Shown: positions 1,874-21,326, counted from the stretch's first letter. The stretch is 34,971 nucleotides of DNA from Promethearchaeota archaeon (GCA_016840165.1 JAEOSU010000085.1:1-34971); one strand, 5' to 3'. Numbers and translations: made by a program. The notes: generated from the letters alone by a model not told the origin.

Positions 1874-3781
1874 ATGGGTATACCAAATAAGTTTAAAATT
1901 TATCTGCAAAAAGGCTTAATAACTAAATTAGATCTTGAAAAGCTTATCGAATTGGACAATAATTATGTAATGACTATTATTAGCAATTTTATTGACTTAT
2001 GCAAGCCTAATAAAATAACAGTTATTTCAGATTCAAAAGAAGATATTGACTATGTAAGGCAAAAAACAATTCAGGTTGGAGAGGAATCTAAACTAAATTT
2101 AGAAGGTCACACAATACATTATGATGGATTTGAAACGATGTCAGATCATGATCAGGCTAGAGATAAAGAACACACTCAGGTACTCTTACCTATCGAAGAC
2201 AAAAATACTTATCCATGGATTAATACAATGAATAGAAAAGAGGGATTAGATGAAATCCTAGAAATTATGGATGGCTGTATGAAGGGACATGAATGTTTAG
2301 TAAGATTTTTTTGTTTAGGCCCTAAACGTTCCAAGTTTTCAATACTCGCTCTCCAATTAACAGATTCTTTTTATGTTGCTCATTCTGAAGATCTACTCTA
2401 CCGAGAAGGTTATGAAGAATTTAAAACCTTGAATGGATCTAACAATTTTTTCTACTTCATCCATTCTACAGGACCACTTAAAGATAATATTCCCGTGACT
2501 AAGGATTTGACAAAACGACGGATTTATATTGATTTAGAAGAGGGAAGAGTTCTGTCATGTTATAATACCTATGCGGGAAATTCACTAGGTTTAAAAAAAT
2601 TAGCATTAAGATTGGGAATTTTTAAAGCGAATAATGAGGATTGGCTAACAGAACACTATTTTATTATGGGACTTCATCCAAAAGAGAAAAATAGAACTAC
2701 CTATGCTGCAGGTGCATTTCCAAGTGCATGTGGAAAAACCTCCACTGCTATGCTTCCTGGACAAACTATTGTTGGAGATGATATTGCATATCTTAGGATA
2801 TGGGATGACAAATTTTGTCATGGTGTTAACATTGAGCGTGGGATTTTTGGCATTATAAAGGATGTTAATATAAAGGATGATCCGGAGATTTTTAAAGCCC
2901 TCACATCTCCAAGAGAGGTGATTTTCTCAAATGTCCTAGTCAATGATGAAGTTCCATATTGGCTAGGTGATGGGAGAGAGCATCCAGATGATGGTTTTAA
3001 CTTTTCTGGTAAATGGCATGAGGGTATAAGAGATAAGAATGGAATTGAAATTCCTTTAGCACATCCAAATGCTCGTTATACTATGAAAATTAATGAATTA
3101 TCCAATGCAGATAAGATGTTAAATGATCCAAATGGAGTTGCGATTAACATTATTTTCTATGGGGGAAGAGACTCAGATACTATGCCTCCTATTTTAGAGA
3201 GTATTGATTGGAAAGAAGGAGTCTTTTCTGGCGCCTCAATCGAATCAGAAACGACCTCAGCCACAATCGGCAAAGAGGGTGTGAGAAAAATGCAACCAAT
3301 GGCTAATTTAGATTTTTTAGTCGTTCCATTAGGAACATATTTAAAGAATCATGAAAAATTTGGAGCATCATTGATATCTCCTCCGAAAGTATTTGCTACT
3401 AACTATTTTCTTAAGAATAAAGAAGGAAAATATCATAATGGAATTCTTGATAAACTAGTTTGGGTAATGTGGGCAGAATTACGTGTTCATGACGACGTTG
3501 ATGCTATTAAAACACCTATTGGTTATATTCCAATATACTCAGATCTTAAAGAACTTTTTAAAATATACCTTAATAAACACTACTCTGAAGCTGATTATTT
3601 AGAACAATTTTCAATACGGACTGAAAATTTAGTCCAGAAACTAAATCGAGTGGAAAATATGTATAAGGAAGAGAGATGGATCCCTCCGTTTTTCTGGGAT
3701 ATTTTAAACAAGCAAAGAAATGAACTTTTAACCTTACAAAAGCATCACAATAAGATTAACATTTTACCAACTGATTTTTAA
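1874..3781 (+). CDS. pckG: GTP-dependent phosphoenolpyruvate carboxykinase
   Basis: 635 aa; QLTDS.YV, YAGNSLGLKK, WLTEH, GAFPSACGKT kinase-1a motif, VGDDIA, HPNARY, FYGGRD. Confidence 0.96.
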   Translation: MGIPNKFKIYLQKGLITKLDLEKLIELDNNYVMTIISNFIDLCKPNKITVISDSKEDIDYVRQKTIQVGEESKLNLEGHTIHYDGFETMSDHDQARDKEHTQVLLPIEDKNTYPWINTMNRKEGLDEILEIMDGCMKGHECLVRFFCLGPKRSKFSILALQLTDSFYVAHSEDLLYREGYEEFKTLNGSNNFFYFIHSTGPLKDNIPVTKDLTKRRIYIDLEEGRVLSCYNTYAGNSLGLKKLALRLGIFKANNEDWLTEHYFIMGLHPKEKNRTTYAAGAFPSACGKTSTAMLPGQTIVGDDIAYLRIWDDKFCHGVNIERGIFGIIKDVNIKDDPEIFKALTSPREVIFSNVLVNDEVPYWLGDGREHPDDGFNFSGKWHEGIRDKNGIEIPLAHPNARYTMKINELSNADKMLNDPNGVAINIIFYGGRDSDTMPPILESIDWKEGVFSGASIESETTSATIGKEGVRKMQPMANLDFLVVPLGTYLKNHEKFGASLISPPKVFATNYFLKNKEGKYHNGILDKLVWVMWAELRVHDDVDAIKTPIGYIPIYSDLKELFKIYLNKHYSEADYLEQFSIRTENLVQKLNRVENMYKEERWIPPFFWDILNKQRNELLTLQKHHNKINILPTDF

Positions 3782-3792
3782 TAACGAAGCTC

Positions 3793-4473
3793 CTATATTA
3801 ATAGTTTCATTCCTTCTTTTACTTTATAACTTTTTTTGAGGCGATCTATTTCAATAAATCTTTTAATTTCAAGATTATTGAGAAAATCTCTCATTTCAAT
3901 TGGATCTTTATTGAGCTTTTCCGATAACCCCTCGATATCATCTTCATAAGCCTTTAATACCTCAATCAAGGAAGAATAATTATCATAAATTTGATTAACA
4001 ATATACTTTAATGCCTCTTCTAAATTATCCCCTGTTCTCGTGCTACATGGGAAAATAACCGAATCTTCTGCGAGATAATTTTGAGATCGAACCACTTCTG
4101 GGTGTCGAGCACCACCAATATCCTGTTTATTTGCTAAATATACGATAGGTGTTTCAGGTGGAACCGCCTTTCTTAATGCATTCAGTATGATAATTGCATC
4201 TTCATCTTTTTCTGGGTTCGCAGCATCAAAGATAAACACAATCCCATCGGTCCCTCTTACTACTACATCACGCATGACATTAAATCTAAGAAGCCCTGGG
4301 GTTCCAAAAAGAAAAATATCAAATCCATTGAGTTTGACACTACCCAAATCCATCCCAACAGTATAGTATCGATTGTCTCGAGCCTTGGCTTCGACATTTA
4401 AAGCTTTATCATCAAAATATTTTATAAAACTTGATTTCCCACACTGCAATGGACCAGATACTACAATCTTCAT
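3793..4473 (-). CDS. Small GTPase (MglA/CvnD/Arf-like) with C-terminal winged-helix-like extension
   Basis: G1 GPLQCGKS, G2 TVGMDLG, G3 GTPGL, G4 NKQD, G5 CST; about 60-aa C-terminal helix-helix-hairpin pattern. Confidence 0.9.
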   Translation of the reverse strand: MKIVVSGPLQCGKSSFIKYFDDKALNVEAKARDNRYYTVGMDLGSVKLNGFDIFLFGTPGLLRFNVMRDVVVRGTDGIVFIFDAANPEKDEDAIIILNALRKAVPPETPIVYLANKQDIGGARHPEVVRSQNYLAEDSVIFPCSTRTGDNLEEALKYIVNQIYDNYSSLIEVLKAYEDDIEGLSEKLNKDPIEMRDFLNNLEIKRFIEIDRLKKSYKVKEGMKLLI

Positions 4474-4822
4474 ATTTCGTCGTGAAAGTAATTACTTAAG
4501 GCGATTATTATGTTTTTATTAACTTTAGCGGTTTTTATAATGCTTTAATATTTAGATAATATTATTCTAAAATAATAATAATAGTCAAGATTTTTAAATT
4601 TCATAATTCATCTCTCTTTTCGTGTTATAAAAAAGATTTTTTTGTGAGATCATACTTTATCATTTTTTTGTCATGAAAAAATTAAGAGAAGAGCCTCTTA
4701 ATGAACAAATATGACTTTTTCAATCAAAAAAATTATAAATATCGATAAGAAACAATAGTATCTTTATTGAATTATGATAATAATCTTTGAATATTCGATA
4801 TTAAATGACTGAAAAAAGACTT

Positions 4823-4855
4823 TTGCGATAATCTTTATATAGTACCTTATCACAA
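4823..4855 (+). promoter_or_regulatory. Putative hdr-met operon promoter: TATA box flanked by an inverted repeat
   Basis: TTGCGATAA(4823-4831)-TCTTTATATAGTACC-TTATCACAA(4847-4855). Confidence 0.45.
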
Positions 4856-4979
4856 TTAGGTAATAATAAGTTTTTAAGTTTTTTAAATTAACAATTATTT
4901 TCAAAAAGGACTATATATTTTAAAAAAACAACGAAATATATTAAAAAAACCAAATGAAATAATTAAAAACGGATTAAAA

Positions 4980-7900
4980 ATGGCAAATAGTAATATAATG
5001 GTAATTGGTGGGGGAATTTCAGGTATAGAAGCATCGTTAACGTTAGCAGAGCAAGGATATCATGTGATACTCGTGGAAAAAACCTCATCGGTAGGAGGGA
5101 GAATGGCGCAACTTGATAAGACATTTCCAACATTAGATTGTAGCATTTGCATTTTAGCGCCAAAAATGGTTGAATCCTCAAGGCATCCGAATATTGAACT
5201 TCTTGCTTACTCTGAAGTGGAAAGTGTGGATGGTTCTGCTGGAGATTTCAATGTCAAGGTGAAAAAGAAAGCTAAATACGTAAATTGGGACGCTTGTACG
5301 GGATGTGGGTCATGTTCAGAGAAATGCCCCATGAAAAAAATACCCTCTGAATTTGAAGAGGGAATGGGAAATAGGACTGCGATCTATATTCCGTTTCCAC
5401 AAGCTGTACCACGAAAAGCAGTAATTGACCCTGAAAAATGCCTTTACTTGACCAAAGGTGCCTGTCAATTATGTGAAAAAGAATGTGAGGCAGAAGCGAT
5501 TAATTGGGATGATAAAGATGAAATTGTTGAATACAATGTAGCTTCTATAATTGTAGCTACTGGATTCGATCAATTAGATCCTTCTGTTCTAGACAGATAT
5601 CACTACGGAGAATATCCAAATGTCATCACGGCAATGCAATACGAAAGACTATTGAGTGCTTCTGGTCCTACAGAAGGAGAGTTATTACGCCCTTCTGATA
5701 AAAAGCATGCTCACAATATTGCATTCGTAAGTTGCGTTGGTTCGAGAAATGAGGACTTATGTGCATATTGTTCGAAATTTTGCTGTATGTATCAAACTAA
5801 AGAGGGAGTAGTAACACGTGAACATGCACCGGATACTAATGTTACCATATTTTTTAATGACATTCGGGTTATCGGAAAGAATCAAGAAGAGTTTATTGAA
5901 CGGGCAAAAAATGAATATAATTTGATTTATTATCGTGGTATACCAGGAGATATAAGAGAAAACCCAGAAAATCATAATCTTTACGTCAAACATGCTAATT
6001 TGGATACAGGAGATGTGGAAACAAGTGAATTCGATTTAGTCGTACTTGCAAATGCTGTGATCCCTAGAAAGGATGCAGGAGCTCTCGCTAAAATCATAGG
6101 AATTGAACAAAATGAATTCGGTTTCTTCAAAACTGAAGCATCAACTGAAGATTTACAATCTACTCGTGAAGGTATATATGTAACTGGTTCATGTCAATCG
6201 CCTGATGATATAGCAAACTCTGTTGCAAAAGCAGGTGGAGCTGCAGGTCTAGCAGCCAACCATGCCGTACCATTAACTCCTGAAGAGATGGAGATCGAGC
6301 TACCTCCATTGAAGGAAATTAAAATTACCGACGAACCTAGAATAGGAGTATTTATATGTCGATGTGGAATCAACATTGCAGGCTATATGGAGATTCCTGA
6401 ATTAGTAGAATATGCTAAAACATTACCTAATGTTGTTTATTCGATGGAAAATAAATATAGCTGTTCCCAATTAACTCAAGATATTATAAAAGAAAAAATA
6501 GAAGAGTTAAACTTGAATAGAGTAGTCGTTGCAGCTTGTACTCCCCGAACTCATGAACCTTTATTTCAAAGAACAATTCGAGAAGCAGGATTAAATGAAT
6601 ATTTATTTAATTTTGTGAGTATTCGCGAGTTAGATTCTTGGGTTCACATGCATGATAAACCTAAAGCAACAGACAAGGCTAAGGATTTAATTAGAATGGG
6701 TGTTGCTCGTGTCGCTGCTCAAAAACCAGAGTTTAAAATTAAGGGCGATGTCGTACCTGAAGCTTTAGTGGTTGGCGGAGGTGTATCAGGAATAAGTGCT
6801 GCCATGGAGATAGCTAGTAAAGGATTTAAGGTACATGTCGTTGAAAAGGAAGCTAGACTTGGTGGACAACTCAACTTAATATATAAAATTAATTTTGACC
6901 GAATCGACTCAAAACAATATCTTGAAAACATGCTTAAGGAATATAATGAAATGAAGAACATTACAACATATTTAGATTCGGAAGTTGCCGATATTAAGGG
7001 ATCGATTGGAGACTTCGATGTTAAAGTGATAAATCATAAAGACCAAAAAACCATCCCTCTCAATGTAGGAGTAATCATTACTACTACTGGAGCATATGAA
7101 TACAAACCAGAAGGATGGTATCATTATGGTGAAAATGAGAATGTAATGACCCAACTTGAGTTATCCGACAAATTAAGAAATAATGAACTAAAAGATGGAG
7201 AAACCTTGGTCTTTATCCATTGCGTGGGTTCACGACAACCGGAAGGTGGAAATGGAGTCACTTATTGTTCATTAATTTGTTGTTCAGAATCTATCCGACA
7301 TGCCTTATACGTAAAGGAGAATTATCCGAAATCTAATATCTATGTCCTCTATAGAGATATTAGAGTAGGTACTGATGAAGAACCTTATTACTGGAAAGCA
7401 AGAGAAAACGTTAATTATATACGATTCAATGAATATCCTGAAGTAGAGGTAAAAAATAGTAAACTTATTGTGGATGTGAAAGATATATTAACTCAGGTTG
7501 ATCTTTCTATAGAAGCTGATAAAGTTGTTTTATCTACACCTCTCATTCCATACGATACAAAAAAATTAGGGGAACAAATAAAATGTGCACGAGATCAGAA
7601 TGGCTTCTTTTTAGAAGCACATGTAAAATTGAGACCAGTAGATTTTGCAACAGATGGGATATTTTTAGCTGGAACCTGTCATGGTCCTAAAGGGATAGCC
7701 GACTCAATCTCACAAGCACGAGCTGCTGCCGCACATGCGTTAATTCCATTAATCTCATGTGAAGTTGAAAATGAACCACTTGTTTCTGTTGTTGATCCCG
7801 CTTTATGTATTGCATGTCAAAAATGTGAAGAAGTGTGCAATTTTGGAGCAATTGGTGTTAATTTTGATAATGAAATACTAGTCTCTAAATCAAATCCACT

Positions 7901-8474
7901 TTTATGCAAAGGTTGTGGTGATTGTTCAGCAGCATGTCCAGCTGGGGCAATAACAATGAGTCATTTTGCAGATAATCAAATTTACCCAATGATTGAAGAA
8001 GCAGTTAAAGGGGAATTCATCGATGAGCGGCCACGTATTGTTGCTTTTTTATGTAACTGGTGTAGTTATGCTGGAGCCGATACTTGTGGAGTCAGTAGAT
8101 TTCAATATCCTACTAATATTCGACCAATTAGAGTCATGTGTACTGGAAGAATTCCGAAAAGCTTTATATTACAAGCATTTCTGGAAGGTGCCGATGGAGT
8201 TCTTATTGGAGGTTGTCATATAGGCGACTGTCACTACTTGGAAGGTAATTATGACATGCTTCGAAGATATAATGAAGTTCATGAGCTATTAGCAAAAGTA
8301 GGCATTAATCCTGATAGATTTCGATTAGAATGGGTTTCTGCGAGTGAAGGAAAAAGATTTTCCCAAGTTGTCACAGAATTCGTTGAAACTGTGAAAAAAT
8401 TAGGGCCAATGCCCAAAACTGGTGATAAAATCGAACCAAAAAAAGAAAAAGTTAAGGAGGTAGCAAAAGCATGA
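4980..8474 (+). CDS. hdrA: Large heterodisulfide reductase subunit A with two FAD modules and a C-terminal MvhD fusion
   Basis: 1164 aa; GGGISG, MAQLDKTFPTLDCSIC, inserted ferredoxin, CVGSR..CSKFCC; internal RIGVFICRCG..ACTPRTHE; second GGGVSG module; 2x[4Fe-4S] ferredoxin; MvhD motifs AFLCNWCSYAGAD, RVMCTGR, GCHIGDCHY. Confidence 0.95.
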   Translation: MANSNIMVIGGGISGIEASLTLAEQGYHVILVEKTSSVGGRMAQLDKTFPTLDCSICILAPKMVESSRHPNIELLAYSEVESVDGSAGDFNVKVKKKAKYVNWDACTGCGSCSEKCPMKKIPSEFEEGMGNRTAIYIPFPQAVPRKAVIDPEKCLYLTKGACQLCEKECEAEAINWDDKDEIVEYNVASIIVATGFDQLDPSVLDRYHYGEYPNVITAMQYERLLSASGPTEGELLRPSDKKHAHNIAFVSCVGSRNEDLCAYCSKFCCMYQTKEGVVTREHAPDTNVTIFFNDIRVIGKNQEEFIERAKNEYNLIYYRGIPGDIRENPENHNLYVKHANLDTGDVETSEFDLVVLANAVIPRKDAGALAKIIGIEQNEFGFFKTEASTEDLQSTREGIYVTGSCQSPDDIANSVAKAGGAAGLAANHAVPLTPEEMEIELPPLKEIKITDEPRIGVFICRCGINIAGYMEIPELVEYAKTLPNVVYSMENKYSCSQLTQDIIKEKIEELNLNRVVVAACTPRTHEPLFQRTIREAGLNEYLFNFVSIRELDSWVHMHDKPKATDKAKDLIRMGVARVAAQKPEFKIKGDVVPEALVVGGGVSGISAAMEIASKGFKVHVVEKEARLGGQLNLIYKINFDRIDSKQYLENMLKEYNEMKNITTYLDSEVADIKGSIGDFDVKVINHKDQKTIPLNVGVIITTTGAYEYKPEGWYHYGENENVMTQLELSDKLRNNELKDGETLVFIHCVGSRQPEGGNGVTYCSLICCSESIRHALYVKENYPKSNIYVLYRDIRVGTDEEPYYWKARENVNYIRFNEYPEVEVKNSKLIVDVKDILTQVDLSIEADKVVLSTPLIPYDTKKLGEQIKCARDQNGFFLEAHVKLRPVDFATDGIFLAGTCHGPKGIADSISQARAAAAHALIPLISCEVENEPLVSVVDPALCIACQKCEEVCNFGAIGVNFDNEILVSKSNPLLCKGCGDCSAACPAGAITMSHFADNQIYPMIEEAVKGEFIDERPRIVAFLCNWCSYAGADTCGVSRFQYPTNIRPIRVMCTGRIPKSFILQAFLEGADGVLIGGCHIGDCHYLEGNYDMLRRYNEVHELLAKVGINPDRFRLEWVSASEGKRFSQVVTEFVETVKKLGPMPKTGDKIEPKKEKVKEVAKA

Positions 8475-9004
8475 CCCAAATGTTAAAAAAGAAAGCAAGT
8501 GAGTTGGATCACGATTTTCGCTATGAAATTAGCGAAAAAGTAGGAGCAAAATCACTCCTAAAATGTATTCAATGTGGAGTATGCAGCTCAGGATGCACAG
8601 TGACCGAATATGTGGATTTACAGCCTCATCGGGTGGTCGCTTCGTGTCTATTAGGTTTAAAAGAAGAAGTACTCACTAGTAACGCAATTTGGACCTGTTC
8701 TCTCTGTCATCGCTGCACTGAACGATGCCCTAAGAATGTTGATTATTCATTTATATTGGCTCTACTTCGAAATATGGCGGTAAAGGAAGGAAAGATTCCA
8801 AAAGAATATTCCACAACTGTAGTGACATTATATCATAATGGTTTTGTTGTACCTTATACTGGTGGGCTGAAAGACAATATTGACAGAAGGAGAAATCGGA
8901 TGGGACTTCCCCAAATAGTTCCACCAAAATTGGAAGAGATACAATTTATAATTGAAGAAACGGGACTTGGAGGTCTCGCGAAAGAAGAGGAGGATGAAAA
9001 ATAA
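8471..9004 (+). CDS. hdrC: Heterodisulfide reductase subunit C
   Basis: CIQCGVCSSGC and IWTCSLCHRCTERCP; ATGA overlap with the hdrA stop. Confidence 0.93.
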   Translation: MTQMLKKKASELDHDFRYEISEKVGAKSLLKCIQCGVCSSGCTVTEYVDLQPHRVVASCLLGLKEEVLTSNAIWTCSLCHRCTERCPKNVDYSFILALLRNMAVKEGKIPKEYSTTVVTLYHNGFVVPYTGGLKDNIDRRRNRMGLPQIVPPKLEEIQFIIEETGLGGLAKEEEDEK

Positions 9005-9885
9005 TGGAATATGCATTATTCTTAGGTTGTACTATACCAATGAAACTTCCTTTCCTAGAAAAAGCATTTAGAGATGTAGCAAATATTTTAGATGTAAAAT
9101 TAAAAGAAATGGAAGGGGTTGGATGTTGTCCCGAACCTGTCGCTATGCAATCACTTAATATTGACACATGGGTCGCTCTGGGTGCGAGAAATTTAGCAAT
9201 TGCTGAACAAATGGGTTTAGATATTATGACCATCTGTTCTGGATGCTATGAAACATTAAAAACTGTAAGTGTTCTCTTAGAGGAGGATGAGGAATATCTC
9301 AAAAAAATTAATGGTATTCTTTCAAAAATTAATTATAAATATACTGGTAAAACGAAAGTATACCATTTTGTGGAGTTATTTAGCCAACCTAAGTGGTTAG
9401 ACAAAATTAAGAAACTCGTTGTTAGACCTTTAGATGATCTAAATCTTGCGGTTCATTATGGCTGCCATCTTATTCGACCCAGTAAAATTATGCAATTTGA
9501 TCACCCCGAAAAACCAGAAAAAATCGATATCATATTAGAAGCATTAAGTGCGAAAACTGTTGAATATGCAACAAAATTAGAATGTTGTGGCTATTGCGCT
9601 CGATTGCAAGAGGAAATTGGAGAAAATCTTGTCGAAGAAAAAATGACAGAACTATGTGAACTTGAAGAGGGAGTGGATGCATTAATCGCTGTATGCCCGG
9701 CATGTACCACGCAATATGATAGAAAAGAAAGAATTGTTGCAAGAAAGACGGGTAAAGAACTCGATATTCCTGTATTATACTTAGCAGAAATTATGGCGAT
9801 AGCTCTAGGCGTCGAATTGGAAGACCTAAGTCTCAAAAATAGAAGTGTTAAACCAAATAAGTTAATTGACAAATTAACCACCTAA
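9004..9885 (+). CDS. hdrB: Heterodisulfide reductase subunit B
   Basis: Two CCG domains: FLGC..GCCP..CSGC and HYGCH..ECCG..CPAC; TAATG overlap with hdrC. Confidence 0.94.
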   Translation: MEYALFLGCTIPMKLPFLEKAFRDVANILDVKLKEMEGVGCCPEPVAMQSLNIDTWVALGARNLAIAEQMGLDIMTICSGCYETLKTVSVLLEEDEEYLKKINGILSKINYKYTGKTKVYHFVELFSQPKWLDKIKKLVVRPLDDLNLAVHYGCHLIRPSKIMQFDHPEKPEKIDIILEALSAKTVEYATKLECCGYCARLQEEIGENLVEEKMTELCELEEGVDALIAVCPACTTQYDRKERIVARKTGKELDIPVLYLAEIMAIALGVELEDLSLKNRSVKPNKLIDKLTT

Positions 9886-9961
9886 TTAGTGTATTTTTTT
9901 ACAAACACAATTGAGTAAAATAAAAAATATAAAAAAATATGAAAATAAGAAGTAATCGAAA

Positions 9962-10666
9962 ATGATAATTACCCAACTAAAAGATATTGACGAAATTTAC
10001 GAAATGATAAAACCATACGATAAGATTCTTATCGCTGGTTGTGATGGATGCTGTCAACCACCCCGTTCACTCAATGAAGCAAAGACTCTTGGCCAACTAC
10101 TAGAATTAAAAGCAAGAACTGAGTCAAAGGTTTTAAAGTGGAAAGCAATAACAGTTCTTCGGCAATGTGATGACAGAATTGCTGCCACTACAGTTAAACC
10201 ACACGCAGAAAACTATGATGCGATCCTTTCCTTAGCATGCGGTCTTGGAGTTGTTATGCTCAATAAGGTTATTGAAGATAAATTAACCTTTCCTTCTCAA
10301 GACAGTCACTTTGGAGGAGTACAAAACAACGGAGAAAATTATTTCATTGAATACTGTGAAGAATGCGGTGATTGTGTCATAGGGGAGACTGGAGGTGTCT
10401 GTCCGAGAGCTGGTTGTGCGAAACATTTAAGTAATGGTCCTTGTGGAGGAATGGTTGATGGAATGTGTGAAGTCGGTGGTTATACCATCCCGTGTGCGTG
10501 GGTACGTATTTATGAGCGTTTAAAAAAGTTTAATAGGTTAGATCTATTTAAGAAATATCGCCCACCACGAGATTATCGAACCTCGACGAGTCCTGGTTAT
10601 ATTCCCATTTATAAAGAATATGGGAATGAGGACGAAGAAGAACAAAAAGAGGAGGCGAAAACATAG
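9962..10666 (+). CDS. metV: Methylenetetrahydrofolate reductase Fe-S/Zn subunit MetV (copy 1)
   Basis: GCDGCC, RQCD, SLACGLGV, CEECGDC..GGVCP..CAKHLSNGPCGG..CEV..CAW; directly abuts metF. Confidence 0.9.
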   Translation: MIITQLKDIDEIYEMIKPYDKILIAGCDGCCQPPRSLNEAKTLGQLLELKARTESKVLKWKAITVLRQCDDRIAATTVKPHAENYDAILSLACGLGVVMLNKVIEDKLTFPSQDSHFGGVQNNGENYFIEYCEECGDCVIGETGGVCPRAGCAKHLSNGPCGGMVDGMCEVGGYTIPCAWVRIYERLKKFNRLDLFKKYRPPRDYRTSTSPGYIPIYKEYGNEDEEEQKEEAKT

Positions 10667-11617
10667 ATGGGAAAACGTCCAGCATACAGTCAATTATGTA
10701 AAGCGATTGAAGAAGGGCATTTCGTCTTTACTGGCGAGCTTGAACCAAAAAAAATCTTGGATCTAAGTGAGATCTTTCACTCTGCAGAAGAGATGAAGAA
10801 AACTGGTAAAATAGTAGCTGCTAATGTCACTGATGGTCCTCAAGGCGATGCATATATGTCTTCGCTCGTTCCAAGTTATTTAATACAAGAAAAAGTTGGA
10901 ATCGAAGCAGTCTGGCAGGTAACTGTTCGTGATAGAAATCGTGTGGCGCTCTTCGGAGATGTGGTTGCAGGATCGGTTTTGGGATTAAAAAATATCTTAA
11001 CTCTAACTGGTGATCATACTGCTCTAGGGGATCACAAAAAAGGTCGTGCGGTATATGATATTGACAGCACTCAATTTTGTGAAATGCTTTCAATAATGAT
11101 TGATGAAGGAACGGATTATGAGGGCAATGAAATAGAGGGAGGTAAGATAGAGATGAATTTTGGATGTGTCGCAAATCCCAATAGTAATCCACGAGAACCT
11201 GAAATCCTTAAAGTCGGTCGAAAGGTAGAACAAGGTGTTGATTTTATTCAGACCCAGACCGCCTTTGATATAGATGAGGCAAAAGCTTTCTTGAAGGAAT
11301 TGGAACAGTTCAATGTCCCTGTCTTACTGGGAGTTTTTCCGTTGAAGAGCTATGGGATAGCATGGTATTTCGATAAATTTATACCTGGTGTAAGTGTCCC
11401 AAAAGACCTACTAAAATCATTAAAAAAGGCAGAGAAAGATAATAAAGGAAATAAGCCTGGCAAATATGCAGCTCTCGATAAGATTAATATCGAATTCTTT
11501 AATCCCTTTATCGAGGAGATCAAGAAAACTACAAAAGCAGCGGGCATCCATTGTATGGCCGTAGAATATGAAAGGTTATTCGATCCTCTGCTTAAAAAAT
11601 ATCCTAAATATGTATAG
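10667..11617 (+). CDS. metF: Methylenetetrahydrofolate reductase MetF (copy 1)
   Basis: TGELEP, NVTD, QVTVRDRNR, LTGDH, ANP, DFIQTQ, GIHCM. Confidence 0.93.
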   Translation: MGKRPAYSQLCKAIEEGHFVFTGELEPKKILDLSEIFHSAEEMKKTGKIVAANVTDGPQGDAYMSSLVPSYLIQEKVGIEAVWQVTVRDRNRVALFGDVVAGSVLGLKNILTLTGDHTALGDHKKGRAVYDIDSTQFCEMLSIMIDEGTDYEGNEIEGGKIEMNFGCVANPNSNPREPEILKVGRKVEQGVDFIQTQTAFDIDEAKAFLKELEQFNVPVLLGVFPLKSYGIAWYFDKFIPGVSVPKDLLKSLKKAEKDNKGNKPGKYAALDKINIEFFNPFIEEIKKTTKAAGIHCMAVEYERLFDPLLKKYPKYV

Positions 11618-11719
11618 GAGGTAAACGGAATTCTTAAATAATAAATTTTTATTAATAAAATATTTTTTTTTACCCATTTTGTAGAATTTAAATAATTAAG
11701 GATTGAGAATGTGATGACC

Positions 11720-12196
11720 ATGAAAAATTTAGATGATAAAGACAAACGGATTTTAGAAATGCTCATCGAAGATTCAAGACGACCATATAAAGAAATCTCT
11801 GATATACTTGCAAAAGAGGGAATTCCCTTATCAGAATCGACAGTAAGGAAACGAGTATTAAAGTTACAAGAAGATGGAGTAATAGAAAAATTCACGATTA
11901 AAGTCTGTAGAGAAGATGAGCGATGCATCATAGCATTTTTAACCATCATTCCGAAAACAGAATCAGAAATCAAAGAACTATTAAGAGAAACACAAATTTT
12001 ACCCCAATGTGAAGAAGTATATTTTCTTGCGGGACAATGCGGCGTTCTTGTGAAAGTAAATGTCCCAGAAATTAATGAACTTGATGCTCTAGTAGAAAGT
12101 TTTCGGGCGAGGAGTGACATAAAAAACGTGGAGAGAGTTTGTGTGGTTTTAAAACCAATCAAAACAATTTCACGAAACGAGCGGATACCTCTCTAA
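11720..12196 (+). CDS. Lrp/AsnC family transcriptional regulator
   Basis: LDDKDKRILEML..DSRRPY..LSESTVRKRVLKL..GVIEKF plus RAM domain; ATG 11720 preferred over GTG 11711, which looks like part of the RBS. Confidence 0.92.
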   Translation: MKNLDDKDKRILEMLIEDSRRPYKEISDILAKEGIPLSESTVRKRVLKLQEDGVIEKFTIKVCREDERCIIAFLTIIPKTESEIKELLRETQILPQCEEVYFLAGQCGVLVKVNVPEINELDALVESFRARSDIKNVERVCVVLKPIKTISRNERIPL

Positions 12197-18046: not shown

Positions 18047-18718
18047 ATGGTAGTAATTACTACAAAAAAGCCCGACGAGGAAGTCTTTGAAGCTTTAGAA
18101 AATTATAAAATAAAAAAGCTCACGCTTGTATCTTGCGCAACATGTGCTGCTTTATGCCAAACAGGTGGAACAGAAGGAGCTAAAGAATGGAAAGACAAAC
18201 TAGAAGAAAAAGGATATGAGATAGAGGCTGTGGTGGTATCTGAAGATGTTTGTGATAATAGAGTTATGAAAAAAGATTTGCGAAAAGTTGATGAAGAAGT
18301 TAAATCATCAGATGCGATCCTGACACTTAGCTGTGGACTCGGAGTTCAATCCATAGTCGAAGTACTCGCAAATAAATACCCCGAAAAACCCGTTCTTGTT
18401 ACTAATAATACAGAATTTATCGGAATGACAGAGAGGATTGGTAGGTTTTACAAACGATGTCAAGCTTGTGGAGATTGTCTTCTAAATTATACAGGGGGGA
18501 TATGTCCCATTGCTACATGTGCTAAAGGTTTAATGAATGGACCATGTGGGGGAATGGTGGATGGAAAATGCGAAGTGGGCAACTATGAAAGAGATTGTGG
18601 TTGGATTTTGATTTTTAATCGATTAAAGGCTATAGGTAGGCTTGATTTGTTTACTAAATTGCGGGAAGCCCGTGATTGGTCCGAAAGTGGCCATCAACAG
18701 GAGGTAATTTTTAGATAA
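18047..18718 (+). CDS. metV: MetV (copy 2)
   Basis: SCATCAALCQTGG, LSCGLGVQ, CQACGDC..GGICP..CAKGLMNGPCGG..CEV..CGW. Confidence 0.92.
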   Translation: MVVITTKKPDEEVFEALENYKIKKLTLVSCATCAALCQTGGTEGAKEWKDKLEEKGYEIEAVVVSEDVCDNRVMKKDLRKVDEEVKSSDAILTLSCGLGVQSIVEVLANKYPEKPVLVTNNTEFIGMTERIGRFYKRCQACGDCLLNYTGGICPIATCAKGLMNGPCGGMVDGKCEVGNYERDCGWILIFNRLKAIGRLDLFTKLREARDWSESGHQQEVIFR

Positions 18719-18730
18719 GAGGTGAAAAAA

Positions 18731-19669
18731 ATGGAAAGTAATCATGCTTATTCTAAATTAGGAGAGGCCCTAGCAAAGGGCGATTTTATCTTAACGGGCG
18801 AACTAGAACCTGAAAAAACCTGCGATCTTTCTCATCTTGTCCAAGAAGCAAAAGAAATGGCACCCTATGTGATAGCTGCCAACGTAACTGACAGTCCTCT
18901 TGGAATTGTGACCATTAATAGTTTAGCAGCTTCTTATATTGTACAAAGAGACGCTGGTTTAGAAGCAATTTGGCAAATGACCGTCAGAGATGTTAACAAA
19001 TTGGGCATTGCGGGAATGTTGATGGGAGCTCAAGCACTTGGAATTCATAATATCCTTTCTCTAACAGGAGATCACCCAAATATGGGAGATATGCCTGAGA
19101 GTAAACCAGTCTTTGACCTAGACTCAGCTACCTTAGTAAAACTTGCTCGAGAAATGGTAGATACAGGTAAAATTAATGGTCATGAAATTGAAGCTCCACC
19201 AAAGCTTCACATCGGCGTTGCTGCTAATCCAAACGCAGAACCTATGGAAGCTGAAGCTTTGAAGATAGGACGTAAAGCAGAAGCTGGTGCTGAATTCATC
19301 CAAACCCAAGTTGTATACGATTTAGATAGAACCATTGAATTCTTATCAGCAATTAAAAAGTATAATGTGCCAATACTGTTAGGAATATTCCCAATGAAAA
19401 GCTACGGTATTGCTAAAGGTTTTGATACGTTTGTGCCTGGTGTAAGCGTACCGAAAGATATTTTGGCGAAATGGAAAGGAATCAAAACTGATCTTAAGAA
19501 TGATAAAAAACTGCAAAAAGAAGCTTATGATCAAGCCAATTATGAATTCTTCAAACCCTTCATTACTGAACTCAGAAAAAAGAAACTTCTCGATGGGATC
19601 CATTGTATGGCCGTTCATTACCCTAGAATCTTCCCAAAATTAGAGGAAGTAATTAAAAGTACAAATTAA
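18731..19669 (+). CDS. metF: MetF (copy 2)
   Basis: TGELEP, NVTDSP, QMTVRD, LTGDH, EFIQTQ, GIHCM; GAGGTGA RBS 5 nt before ATG 18731. Confidence 0.93.
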   Translation: MESNHAYSKLGEALAKGDFILTGELEPEKTCDLSHLVQEAKEMAPYVIAANVTDSPLGIVTINSLAASYIVQRDAGLEAIWQMTVRDVNKLGIAGMLMGAQALGIHNILSLTGDHPNMGDMPESKPVFDLDSATLVKLAREMVDTGKINGHEIEAPPKLHIGVAANPNAEPMEAEALKIGRKAEAGAEFIQTQVVYDLDRTIEFLSAIKKYNVPILLGIFPMKSYGIAKGFDTFVPGVSVPKDILAKWKGIKTDLKNDKKLQKEAYDQANYEFFKPFITELRKKKLLDGIHCMAVHYPRIFPKLEEVIKSTN

Positions 19670-19681
19670 TTTTTTTTTTTT
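19670..19681 (+). terminator. Oligo-T terminator after metF copy 2
   Basis: T12 run directly after the stop codon. Confidence 0.55.
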
Positions 19682-19793
19682 AAATCTATATTAGAAGGAC
19701 TAATTATAAATTAGGTACTTCTTTCTTGTTTCTTTATTCAAGTTTTATTTCATTAATAAAAACTTTATATTCAATGGAAATCGAAATGAATCT

Positions 19794-21326
19794 ATGGAAT
19801 CATACGATTTAGTTGTAATTGGCTCTGGTGTCGGTCTTAATGTGCTTAATTATGGGTTACAAATGGGGCTTAATTGTGCTTTAGTGGAAGACACCAAACT
19901 TGGTGGGACATGTTTAACACGAGGATGTATTCCATCAAAGGTATTGGTCCATCCTGCAGATTTGATTAGGGAAGCAGAACATGCTCCAAAAGTAGGAGTG
20001 AAATTTGAGGTTTTAAATATTAACTGGGAACTGATTGCGAAACGGATGTGGTCCCAGATAGATGAAAGCAAAGAAATGGAAAAGGGATTGTCAGAAGTTT
20101 CCAATCTAAAGTTCTATAATGGAGTGGGTGAATTTGTTAGTGAGTATGAGATGAAAGTAACTTCTGTAAAAACCGGAGAGGAACTCGGCCACTTCAGAGG
20201 TGAACGTTTTGTTTTAGCTTCAGGGGCTCGTTCTTTTATTCCCCCAATCGACGGACTCGAAGAGACTGGATATATAACGAATGAAACCTTCTTTGGGGAT
20301 AAATTTCCAGAAAAACCGTGGGAAAGTTTAATCATAATTGGTGGGGGAGTGATCGCTGCCGAATTTGCTCATATCTTTTCTGCTTTAGGAACTGAAGTGA
20401 CCATTGTGGAGATGCTTCCTCGCTTGGTAATGACCGAAGAACCAGAAATAAGCAAATTTTTGGAAACCAATTTTAAGAAACATTTGAAGGTTCTTGTAAA
20501 CCATAAAGCGATTCGAGCACAATCAAAAAAGAAAATGAAGATAGTGACGCTTCAAAACGTAAATACTCAAGATGAGATTGAAATTAAGGCAGAAGAAATA
20601 CTTGTCGCAACTGGTAGACGTTCCAATACGGATTTACTAAAAGTCGAAAAAACAGGTGTAGAAACTGATGAGAGGGGATGGATCAAGACAAATAAATTTT
20701 TAGAAACAACAAAAGAAAAGATTTGGTGCATCGGAGATGCTAATGGGCTTTATCAATTCCGACACAAGGCGAATTATGAATCTGAATTATGCGTTAATAA
20801 TATGTTTGGTCCCCCAGAAGGCAAGAAACAAGCTGATTATTCTTCAGTACCATGGGCTATATTTTCTTATCCCCAGATTGGCCACGTTGGAATGACTGAA
20901 AAAGAAGCAATTGAAAATGGTCATGAGATCTATGTGGCGACTAAGCATTACTCCTCCGTTGCCAAAGGATTTGCGATGGGATATGAAAAAGGTGATGGCG
21001 ATGATGGATTCGTGAAATTAGTGATTGATAAGTCCTATAGGATCTTAGGAGCTCATGTAATTGGTCCTCATGCGGCAGTATTAGTACAACCATTTGTCTA
21101 TTTGATGAATGCGGGATTTACTTGCGAATTACCTAATATGGGAGAGGAACCAGAGCTTCCAAAATTGGCTCGAGCATGCCCCGAAAGTGGTTCATTTATG
21201 CCAATCTATAAATCAATGGTAATTCATCCTTCTTTAAATGAAGTTACCGGTTGGGCAATTGGTTCGCTCCGACCGGTGAATATAAAAATGGAACACCATC
21301 ATCATCACCATAATCATGAAGAATGA
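19794..21326 (+). CDS. Class I pyridine nucleotide-disulfide oxidoreductase (dihydrolipoamide dehydrogenase/mycothione reductase-like) with His-rich tail
   Basis: VIGSG, GGTCLTRGCIPSK redox disulfide, GGGVIAAE, ATGR, IGD, HPSLNE His-Glu pair; ends EHHHHHHNHEE. Confidence 0.92.
   Translation: MESYDLVVIGSGVGLNVLNYGLQMGLNCALVEDTKLGGTCLTRGCIPSKVLVHPADLIREAEHAPKVGVKFEVLNINWELIAKRMWSQIDESKEMEKGLSEVSNLKFYNGVGEFVSEYEMKVTSVKTGEELGHFRGERFVLASGARSFIPPIDGLEETGYITNETFFGDKFPEKPWESLIIIGGGVIAAEFAHIFSALGTEVTIVEMLPRLVMTEEPEISKFLETNFKKHLKVLVNHKAIRAQSKKKMKIVTLQNVNTQDEIEIKAEEILVATGRRSNTDLLKVEKTGVETDERGWIKTNKFLETTKEKIWCIGDANGLYQFRHKANYESELCVNNMFGPPEGKKQADYSSVPWAIFSYPQIGHVGMTEKEAIENGHEIYVATKHYSSVAKGFAMGYEKGDGDDGFVKLVIDKSYRILGAHVIGPHAAVLVQPFVYLMNAGFTCELPNMGEEPELPKLARACPESGSFMPIYKSMVIHPSLNEVTGWAIGSLRPVNIKMEHHHHHHNHEE

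Follow-up and report, generated by a model that had tools for sequence, protein, structure and literature searches.

Five genes on a 34,971-nucleotide contig of a Promethearchaeota archaeon (GCA_016840165.1, JAEOSU010000085.1:1-34971; this whole stretch is referred to below as the window) probably encode an archaeal methylene-tetrahydropterin reductase of the heterodisulfide reductase (Hdr)-coupled, 'type IV'-like kind, which would replace the absent Mer; that the products form a complex, which partners it has and that it bifurcates electrons is what we infer. The genes, a tandem hdrA fused to mvhD followed by hdrC, hdrB, metV and metF, are intact, co-oriented open reading frames at 4980-11617 on the + strand (Table 1). 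Read directly, the hdrA/hdrC junction is an ATGA overlap (8471-8474), the hdrC/hdrB junction a TAATG overlap (9002-9006), and the TAG of metV abuts the ATG of metF (10664-10669). The window proteins were identified by Pfam and NCBIfam profile searches, which gave an HdrA-type flavoprotein with a FlpD/MvhD domain (E 1e-52; NCBIfam HdrA2 at 1172 bits, cut-off 1100), HdrC with two 4Fe-4S motifs (TIGR03290, E 1e-28), HdrB with two CCG domains (TIGR03288, E 4e-82), MetV (DUF5981, E 1e-29) and a MetF of the MTHFR family (PF02219, E 6e-26). The reading frames, overlaps and profiles thus agree with the gene set, coordinates, strand and junctions given in an initial annotation made from the sequence alone. 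As that annotation also stated, the window contains no mvhAG or mcr gene; NiFe hydrogenase genes occur elsewhere in the genome. None of the donor modules looked for (hydrogenase, formate dehydrogenase (Fdh), FrhB, GltD) is encoded in the cluster. The Asgard-like origin that had been proposed is confirmed by the close relatives, which are Promethearchaeota/Promethearchaeia metagenome-assembled genomes (MAGs) from sediments and marshes (at present the NCBI names for Asgard/Lokiarchaeia), and by the Ras-type GTPase and leucine-rich repeat genes carried in the window. A scan of genome contigs with MetV1 gave matches in Lokiarchaeial relatives only.

The first gene keeps the hdrA-mvhD identity it had been assigned, but its product is not a simple, single HdrA; it is a tandem, two-flavin protein. 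Residues 6-430 align with residues 146-512 of HdrA from Methanothermococcus thermolithotrophicus (PDB ID: 5ODC), the second Cys of the DCSIC motif (C57) being the equivalent of Cys197, and this first module is without the N-terminal domain. Residues 451-617 align with 5ODC 2-168 (N-terminal Fe-S domain) and residues 871-1007 with 5ODC 512-648 (C-terminal ferredoxin domain), while the fused MvhD domain matches MvhD chains in the PDB at E 1e-47 to 1e-52. Module 2, 28% identical to module 1, carries a Rossmann motif and a CX..CC cluster as well; the DCSIC motif and the inserted ferredoxin domain are missing from it. The cofactor cysteines are invariant in the 49 tandem orthologs (40/40 and 9/9), as seen for C460, C462, C495 and C520 of the N-terminal-type domain and for the eight cysteines of the C-terminal ferredoxin domain. 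The E356/K409 pair is a mark of bifurcating HdrA flavins, and the inserted ferredoxin domain binds ferredoxin in the bifurcating methanogen enzyme (PMC9430772). This signature is found in module 1 as E222/K274 (49/49 orthologs), whereas the corresponding positions of module 2 are S729/R773 in the window-type variant (variant A, see below). Judged by these alignments, the 1164-aa protein is a fused pseudo-dimer that retains a single copy of every accessory domain found in an HdrA dimer; the same 'complementary loss' of domains has been described for Moorella HdrA and for HdrA3/4 of anaerobic methanotrophic archaea (ANME) (Chadwick et al. 2022, PMC9012536). Pfam detects no GltD/NAD(P)H module in the cluster proteins, so NADH is an unlikely donor.

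The residues expected to hold cofactors or substrate are equally well conserved in the other four proteins. The ten CCG-motif cysteines of HdrB (46/46 orthologs), the eight cysteines of HdrC (43/43) and thirteen cysteines of MetV (56 orthologs) are invariant, as are three residues of MetF (56/56), the Glu of GELEP that serves as catalytic acid, the Asp of TGDH that binds the pterin and the Gln of TQT, which align to the Thermus and E. coli positions defined in PMC11094777. Three redox sites are therefore conserved, namely the MetF flavin, the ferredoxin-binding inserted domain beside the signature flavin, and the HdrB CCG site. Since no donor module is encoded in the cluster, these three sites lead us to infer that three couples are linked by bifurcation or confurcation. 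The MetF flavin would interconvert methylene and methyl C1 units, and MetV would wire MetF to the Hdr module, most likely via the fused MvhD domain. The tandem HdrA would act as a two-flavin pseudo-dimer, with E222/K274 and the ferredoxin-binding domain in module 1, and HdrC together with HdrB (both CCG sites intact) would supply a thiol/disulfide site. Bifurcation or confurcation at the module-1 FAD would then link the methylene/methyl-pterin couple, ferredoxin and some disulfide/dithiol couple, in the reductive direction in CO2 fixation and in the oxidative direction in methyl oxidation. Energy conservation by bifurcation, or methyl oxidation driven by confurcation, as envisaged in the initial annotation, keeps the standing of a proposal with which the intact motifs and the E222/K274 pair are consistent. 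The Hdr and MvhD parts could also be coupled to MetVF without bifurcating, serving as an electron wire or docking scaffold from a donor such as ferredoxin, F420H2 or, through a hydrogenase from another locus, H2, which we regard as unlikely. The missing E/K signature of module 2 in variant A would suit such a wire, and so would the direct use of reduced ferredoxin by type II MetVF (PMC8760232); for the enzyme of Sporomusa ovata, a membrane-associated linear or confurcating chain has been proposed (PMC9430772), and bifurcation has been shown for no Hdr-type methylenetetrahydrofolate reductase (MTHFR) (PMC9430772, PMC8760232). However, a mere wire would not need the two fully conserved CCG sites of HdrB, and the E/K pair of module 1, present in all orthologs together with the inserted ferredoxin domain, also argues against it.

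Table 1 Features of the Hdr-MetVF cluster and its flanks. Positions are counted from the first letter of the window.
Feature	Position	Strand	Remarks
A+T-rich intergenic region, presumed hdrA promoter region	4474..4979	.	506 bp; between hdrA and divergent Ras-like GTPase gene; sequence read
Tandem hdrA fused to mvhD	4980..8474	+	1164 aa
HdrA module 1, aa 1-440	4980..6299	+	FAD Rossmann, DCSIC, inserted 2x[4Fe-4S] ferredoxin domain, CX..CC cluster, E222/K274
HdrA N-terminal-type (MvhD-like) Fe-S domain, aa 451-590, between modules	6330..6749	+	5ODC alignment
HdrA module 2 core, aa 595-930	6762..7769	+	second FAD Rossmann; Pfam Pyr_redox_2 at 596-919
HdrA C-terminal 2x[4Fe-4S] ferredoxin domain, aa 937-993	7788..7958	+	Pfam Fer4_9/Fer4_21
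Fused MvhD domain, [2Fe-2S] type, aa 1017-1148	8028..8423	+	Pfam FlpD E 1e-52
hdrC	8471..9004	+	177 aa; two CX2CX2CX3C motifs
hdrB	9004..9885	+	293 aa; two complete CCG motifs (non-cubane [4Fe-4S] sites)
hdrB-metV gap	9886..9961	+	76 nt; small hairpin, T7 run, A/T-rich TATA-like stretch
metV, Fe-S/Zn subunit	9962..10666	+	234 aa; Pfam DUF5981
metF (MetF1 paralog), flavin-dependent methylene-tetrahydropterin reductase	10667..11617	+	316 aa; Pfam MTHFR
Lrp/AsnC-family regulator gene, directly 3' of metF1	11711..12196	+	Pfam

The genome (G000; 3.6 Mb, 99.7% complete, 6.3% contaminated) has only two MetF genes, both of them in the window (MetF1 in the cluster, MetF2 further downstream). The Mer profile TIGR03555 has no match in it, and neither Fhs (formyl-tetrahydrofolate synthetase) nor McrA was found. 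It does contain two copies of Ftr, Mch, an F420-dependent Mtd next to Ftr, CofG/H and the carbon monoxide dehydrogenase/acetyl-CoA synthase (CdhC), as well as one FolD-like gene. The tetrahydromethanopterin (H4MPT) methyl branch is, by gene content, complete except for Mer, although F420 synthesis and Mtd are both present. With Mer missing from an otherwise present branch, MetF is the sole candidate for the Mer step, and its substrate is consequently likely to be methylene-H4MPT and not methylene-tetrahydrofolate (methylene-THF, methylene-H4F). The role in the C1 methyl branch assigned to an acetogen-type, Hdr-coupled MTHFR in the initial annotation can be retained, as can the likeness to the Moorella system, which extends to Sporomusa; from this pathway context, the carrier is probably H4MPT instead of THF. 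In line with this, replacement of Mer has been proposed for the ANME-1 type of MetF, with which Asgard homologs group (PMC9012536). Mer itself probably catalyses the same pathway step as MetF1, but is of a different family, has no prosthetic flavin and uses F420H2 directly. MetF1 would be a functional analog of Mer at most, given that it belongs to PF02219 and not to the luciferase-like Mer family; Mer, Mfr and MTHFR nevertheless share a catalytic Glu/Asp/Gln arrangement (PMC11094777).

The MetF family membership and the FolD-like gene would also fit an anabolic methylene-THF reductase, supplying methyl-THF for methionine outside the Wood-Ljungdahl branch as in Methanosarcina; MetFV of the Methanosarcinaceae is anabolic and H4F-specific (PMC9012536). 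We consider this very improbable for MetVF1, considering that Fhs is absent, that no folate-enzyme cluster surrounds either metVF pair, and that Mer is absent while the remaining H4MPT branch is present. A minor anabolic flux would moreover hardly warrant two metVF pairs and a 1164-aa HdrA, and MetF is of the ANME-1/Asgard type and not of the Methanosarcina type according to the classification of PMC9012536.

A MetF was found in 188 of the 301 genomes sampled across the phylum, and 100 neighbourhoods were compared by mapping the window proteins onto them. MetF1 orthologs (at least 67% identical) are restricted to the family of the window (f1), with one exception on a 2.6-kb contig of another family, and a MetF2-type copy is also present in most f1 genomes, often on the same contig as MetF1. 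In all MetV1/MetF1 loci whose flanks are long enough (about 60, from MAGs), Hdr genes lie directly upstream, and because it is conserved in that many orthologous loci, the arrangement is far beyond chance. Two variants are found. Variant A (about 50 loci) has the gene order of the window, tandem hdrA-mvhD, hdrC, hdrB, metV, metF, lrp, whereas variant B begins with a split HdrA set, continues with a fused tandem hdrA-mvhD and then metV, metF and lrp, and is without hdrBC. The split set codes for proteins of 431 aa (hdrA-M1) and 555 aa (hdrA-Nt+M2) and for an MvhD of about 255 aa with a C-terminal extension, and the fused HdrA-MvhD has E/K in both of its modules. The variant-B loci (L030-L032, L034-L036, L046 and L047, e.g. 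L032:63-8939) come from sister genomes in the same genera. A HdrA interrupted by selenocysteine codons was considered for variant B and rejected, as the stop codons are TAA or TAG and fall between genes that are truly separate and lie -4 to 21 nt apart. The Lrp/AsnC gene follows metF1 in 20/20 loci, and then in all further loci extending far enough, in variants A and B alike; its product may be a dedicated regulator.

A single copy of the variant-A HdrB ortholog is present in 57 of the 81 family genomes; it is one gene away from metF1 wherever both coordinates are listed, and at most 43% identical to the HdrB paralogs. As a marker for variant B we used the long MvhD, counting only matches of at least 69% identity since paralogs of about 50% identity are found in most genomes. 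The marker is present in at least 11 of the 81 family genomes, none of which has the variant-A HdrB, i.e. the two are mutually exclusive. Most family genomes have 1-4 paralogs of this long MvhD (about 255 aa, the C-terminal extension being winged-helix-like; L032:3052-3807), some of them inside frames of about 1270 aa which resemble further tandem HdrA fusions; in the genome of the window, none matched at E 1e-60.

Outside f1, family f20 has the order metV-metF-tandem hdrA-mvhD-hdrC-hdrB, which is also found on an Asgard metagenome contig carrying a cofilin gene (P0002). In f10, f14 and f21 the Hdr genes are only loosely near metVF and on the opposite strand, and no Hdr gene lies within 10 kb of metVF in f9 (the largest family sampled), f2, f4, f11, f12, f15, f18 and f23. 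The conserved linkage on which the initial annotation had made its proposal depend is thus tight in f1, and is seen in f20 with another gene order, but is not Asgard-wide. In a quick IQ-TREE phylogeny of MetF (midpoint root, branch support by the SH-like approximate likelihood ratio test, SH-aLRT), which was used for clade membership only, MetF1 forms a long-stemmed clade of f1 sequences only (SH-aLRT 100), while MetF2 is in a separate clade with f2 and f20. MetF1 and MetF2 are 47% identical, and MetV1 and MetV2 38%; these values and the separate clades indicate that the two metVF pairs are old paralogs, and a recent duplication was rejected on the same grounds.

In another lineage (metagenome contig L129:520-6114), metV-metF comes straight after a gene for a 394-aa polyferredoxin-MvhD fusion, with Ftr and another, divergent metVF pair alongside, and on the metagenome contig L130:2-2316 a NiFe-hydrogenase small-subunit gene follows the same MetF as on L129.

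The operon of the initial annotation stands as far as gene adjacency and overlaps are concerned, whereas its being a single transcription unit is uncertain. The hdrB-metV gap of variant A measures 46-126 nt across orthologs, and in the window it contains a hairpin (9889-9908) around a T7 run (9894-9900), followed by a TATA-like AATTTAAR box before metV. Oligo-T is a termination signal in archaea. Runs of at least five T within 30 nt of the hdrB stop occur in 41 of 47 distinct orthologous flanks, which are related by descent and do not form an independent sample, vs 149 of 446 (33%) comparable same-strand gaps of the genome. The run is often in a short hairpin, the stems of which vary compensatorily (GTGT/ACAC, GAATTG/CAATTC, AAGG/CCTT, TGAG/CTCA). 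This element could act as a leaky terminator within the cluster, or else in RNA processing or stability; together with the TATA-like box, the conserved oligo-T makes separate transcription of the two halves possible. In variant B, metV is preceded by 29-39 nt with only a Shine-Dalgarno sequence. T5 and T9 runs are also present between metF and the Lrp/AsnC gene. The contigs of a rhizosphere metatranscriptome (X20) are 150-170 nt long and none spans a gene junction; five are near-identical to hdrA (window 5820-7257; 0-3 differences) and one is a piece of metF (about 87% identical), with DNA carry-over being possible. The hdrA contigs imply the presence, and perhaps the expression, of a very close relative outside marine sediment.

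The same gap elements would suit a cluster of two independent neighbouring enzymes, with the HdrA-MvhD/HdrCB set working for a different donor, MetVF acting as a stand-alone, type II-like, ferredoxin-dependent reductase and the synteny reflecting co-regulation, e.g. by the downstream Lrp protein. MetVF standing alone in f9 and other families would agree with this, as would the roughly 12 MvhD and 18 CCG proteins encoded genome-wide, which point to a promiscuous use of Hdr modules. We nonetheless find two separate enzymes quite unlikely, because the MetF1 clade occurs only next to Hdr genes, the coupling is seen in three gene orders, including the short gap of variant B, and the MvhD-metV adjacency recurs in unrelated contexts. 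Pulldowns in S. ovata, furthermore, link MetVF with HdrA, HdrB and MvhD (PMC9430772).

A predicted contact between MvhD and MetV is a further hint in the same direction. Docking of MetV on MvhD is tentatively proposed by analogy with MvhG and FdhB in the solved Hdr complexes. The complex of the MvhD domain with MetV was predicted and scored by ipSAE against controls. It obtained an ipSAE of 0.37, the best control having 0.00. Among solved complexes, 58 of 80 attained this mark, against 2 of 110 mismatched pairs; values of 0.60 or less were obtained by only 7 of those 80 but by both of the passing mismatches. At least 97% of the contacts are common to the runs, and the predicted local distance difference test score (pLDDT) of the partner is at least 86. 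No solved structure matches MetV by sequence or profile, which means that the prediction is not recall.

The nearest systems that have been characterised are those of S. ovata and Moorella thermoacetica (PMC9430772, PMC8760232, PMC5861303), with which the cluster was compared by the descriptions in the papers and not by sequence alignment. The Hdr-type MTHFR of S. ovata (Kremp et al. 2022, PMC9430772) has the same six modules (MetF, MetV, HdrA, HdrB, HdrC and MvhD) and hdr genes upstream of metVF. As described there, its HdrA has two flavin modules resembling thioredoxin reductase (TrxR), with E/K in the first alone, a second half with an MvhD-like N-terminal and a C-terminal ferredoxin domain, and no NAD(P)H-binding domain, all of which is also seen in the window. 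On the other hand, the window HdrA keeps the inserted ferredoxin-binding domain in module 1, which S. ovata HdrA does not have; MvhD is fused to HdrA instead of separate, the gene order is A-C-B and not C-B-A-D, and the host is an archaeon with an H4MPT-type pathway. For Moorella, the sources describe MetFV-HdrABC-MvhD as a proposed bifurcating methylene reductase with its second partner open (Mock et al. 2014, via PMC8760232, PMC5861303, PMC9430772 and PMC9012536), and hdr-mvhD-metVF as one transcription unit. Going by these descriptions, the gene set and a multi-flavin fused HdrA with complementary domain loss are common to both. In Moorella, however, NADH is oxidised at an HdrA (1487 aa) with an NAD(P)H module of the GltD type, whereas the window HdrA is without this module. 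Both TrxR modules of the Moorella HdrA are described with E/K, as in variant B and unlike variant A, and the Moorella substrate is methylene-THF (E0' about -200 mV), while methylene-H4MPT (about -390 mV) is likely here.

The methanogen complexes MvhADG-HdrABC and FdhAB-MvhD-HdrABC (PDB IDs: 5ODC, 7BKB and 8RVU) match the HdrA parts with E-values of 1e-157 to 1e-206 and MvhD with about 1e-50. The HdrB CCG and HdrC motifs are intact in both, and in methanogens the electron-input module docks via MvhD. The domain set of methanogen HdrA is entirely present in the window, but spread over two fused modules, so that one polypeptide stands in place of the HdrA dimer, and MetVF occupies the position held by hydrogenase or Fdh in methanogen clusters. 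Also archaeal are the MetFV-HdrA-MvhD clusters of Ca. Syntrophoarchaeum, in which a MetF of the type proposed as a substitute for Mer is likewise found with HdrA and MvhD (PMC9012536). Variant B, with several HdrA/MvhD genes and no HdrBC, resembles that arrangement, whereas the variant of the window includes HdrC and HdrB and occurs in Lokiarchaeia without Mcr or Acr. The cluster is thus of a known kind, the Hdr-type MetVF of S. ovata and Moorella; what is new is an archaeal, Lokiarchaeial variant with fused MvhD and a retained ferredoxin domain. No paper describing the operon in Lokiarchaeia, or its two variants, was found in the open literature, subscription papers being outside the search.

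Several points weigh against an Hdr-coupled reductase acting on H4MPT. Specificity for H4MPT or H4F is not something that can be read from the sequence, and the FolD-like gene noted above is present in the genome. The hdr genes and metVF may, from the gap elements, be partly separate transcription units, and complex formation between MvhD and MetV is only weakly supported by the in silico model. Most other Asgard families keep metVF without adjacent Hdr genes, which means that MetVF can evidently work with other partners. We also know of no thiol/disulfide substrate in an organism lacking Mcr; the heterodisulfide of coenzymes M and B (CoM-S-S-CoB) is an unlikely one, as the genome has no Mcr. 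Besides the missing demonstration of bifurcation, MetVF of S. ovata purifies without Hdr (PMC9430772, PMC8760232).

MetVF may alternatively not be the terminal acceptor that it is in acetogens but the electron-input module of a true HdrABC bifurcase, in the position which MvhAG or FdhAB have in methanogens; this is a doubtful possibility. The oxidation of methyl-H4MPT would then be bifurcated to ferredoxin, at the inserted domain, and to some disulfide at HdrB, the reverse being confurcation. With a textbook potential of about -390 mV, the methyl/methylene-H4MPT couple lies near H2 and F420H2, and the oxidation could for this reason be bifurcated. If this were the case, the cluster would code for a self-contained, three-partner machine with no need for an NAD(P)H module, and the variants with and without HdrBC would represent alternative high-potential outlets.

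The reading of the cluster as a probable Mer-replacing reductase touches on two wider questions, namely how, and with which electron carriers, archaea without Mer (ANME-1, Bathyarchaeia and many Asgard) carry out the methylene/methyl-H4MPT step, and how and with what partner Hdr-type MetVF reductases in general work. The Lokiarchaeial family is a clean test case for these questions: its H4MPT branch is complete bar Mer, it has a MetF paralog found only beside Hdr genes and an HdrA with the ferredoxin-binding domain but without the NAD(P)H module, and sister genomes offer two mutually exclusive natural versions, with either HdrBC or a second HdrA-MvhD set. The answer bears on models of the energy yield of Asgard acetogenesis and syntrophy, which in turn feed scenarios of what metabolism the archaeal ancestor of eukaryotes had.

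The second metVF pair of the window (metV 18047-18718, metF 18722-19669) is followed by a gene for a 510-aa, Lpd-like pyridine-nucleotide disulfide oxidoreductase (19794-21326), and the trio (18047-21326) is kept in several relatives. In Clostridium ljungdahlii, too, metVF lies next to lpdA, and an electron donor linked to Lpd has been hypothesised there (PMC8760232). Elsewhere in the genome, one of the NiFe hydrogenase genes comes right after another HdrA-MvhD gene (an Mvh-type hydrogenase-HdrA locus). Four of the 12 MvhD-domain genes have two in-frame TGA codons (C9:36114-36482, C29:63261-63629, C79:12258-12626 and C105:9193-9558), which suggests that they code for selenocysteine-containing, VhuD-like proteins. 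Upstream of the cluster, a divergent Ras gene is found in most variant-A loci, and the pair formed by a GTP-dependent phosphoenolpyruvate carboxykinase gene and the divergent gene for a Ras-family small GTPase (window 1874-4473) is kept in this position in several genera.

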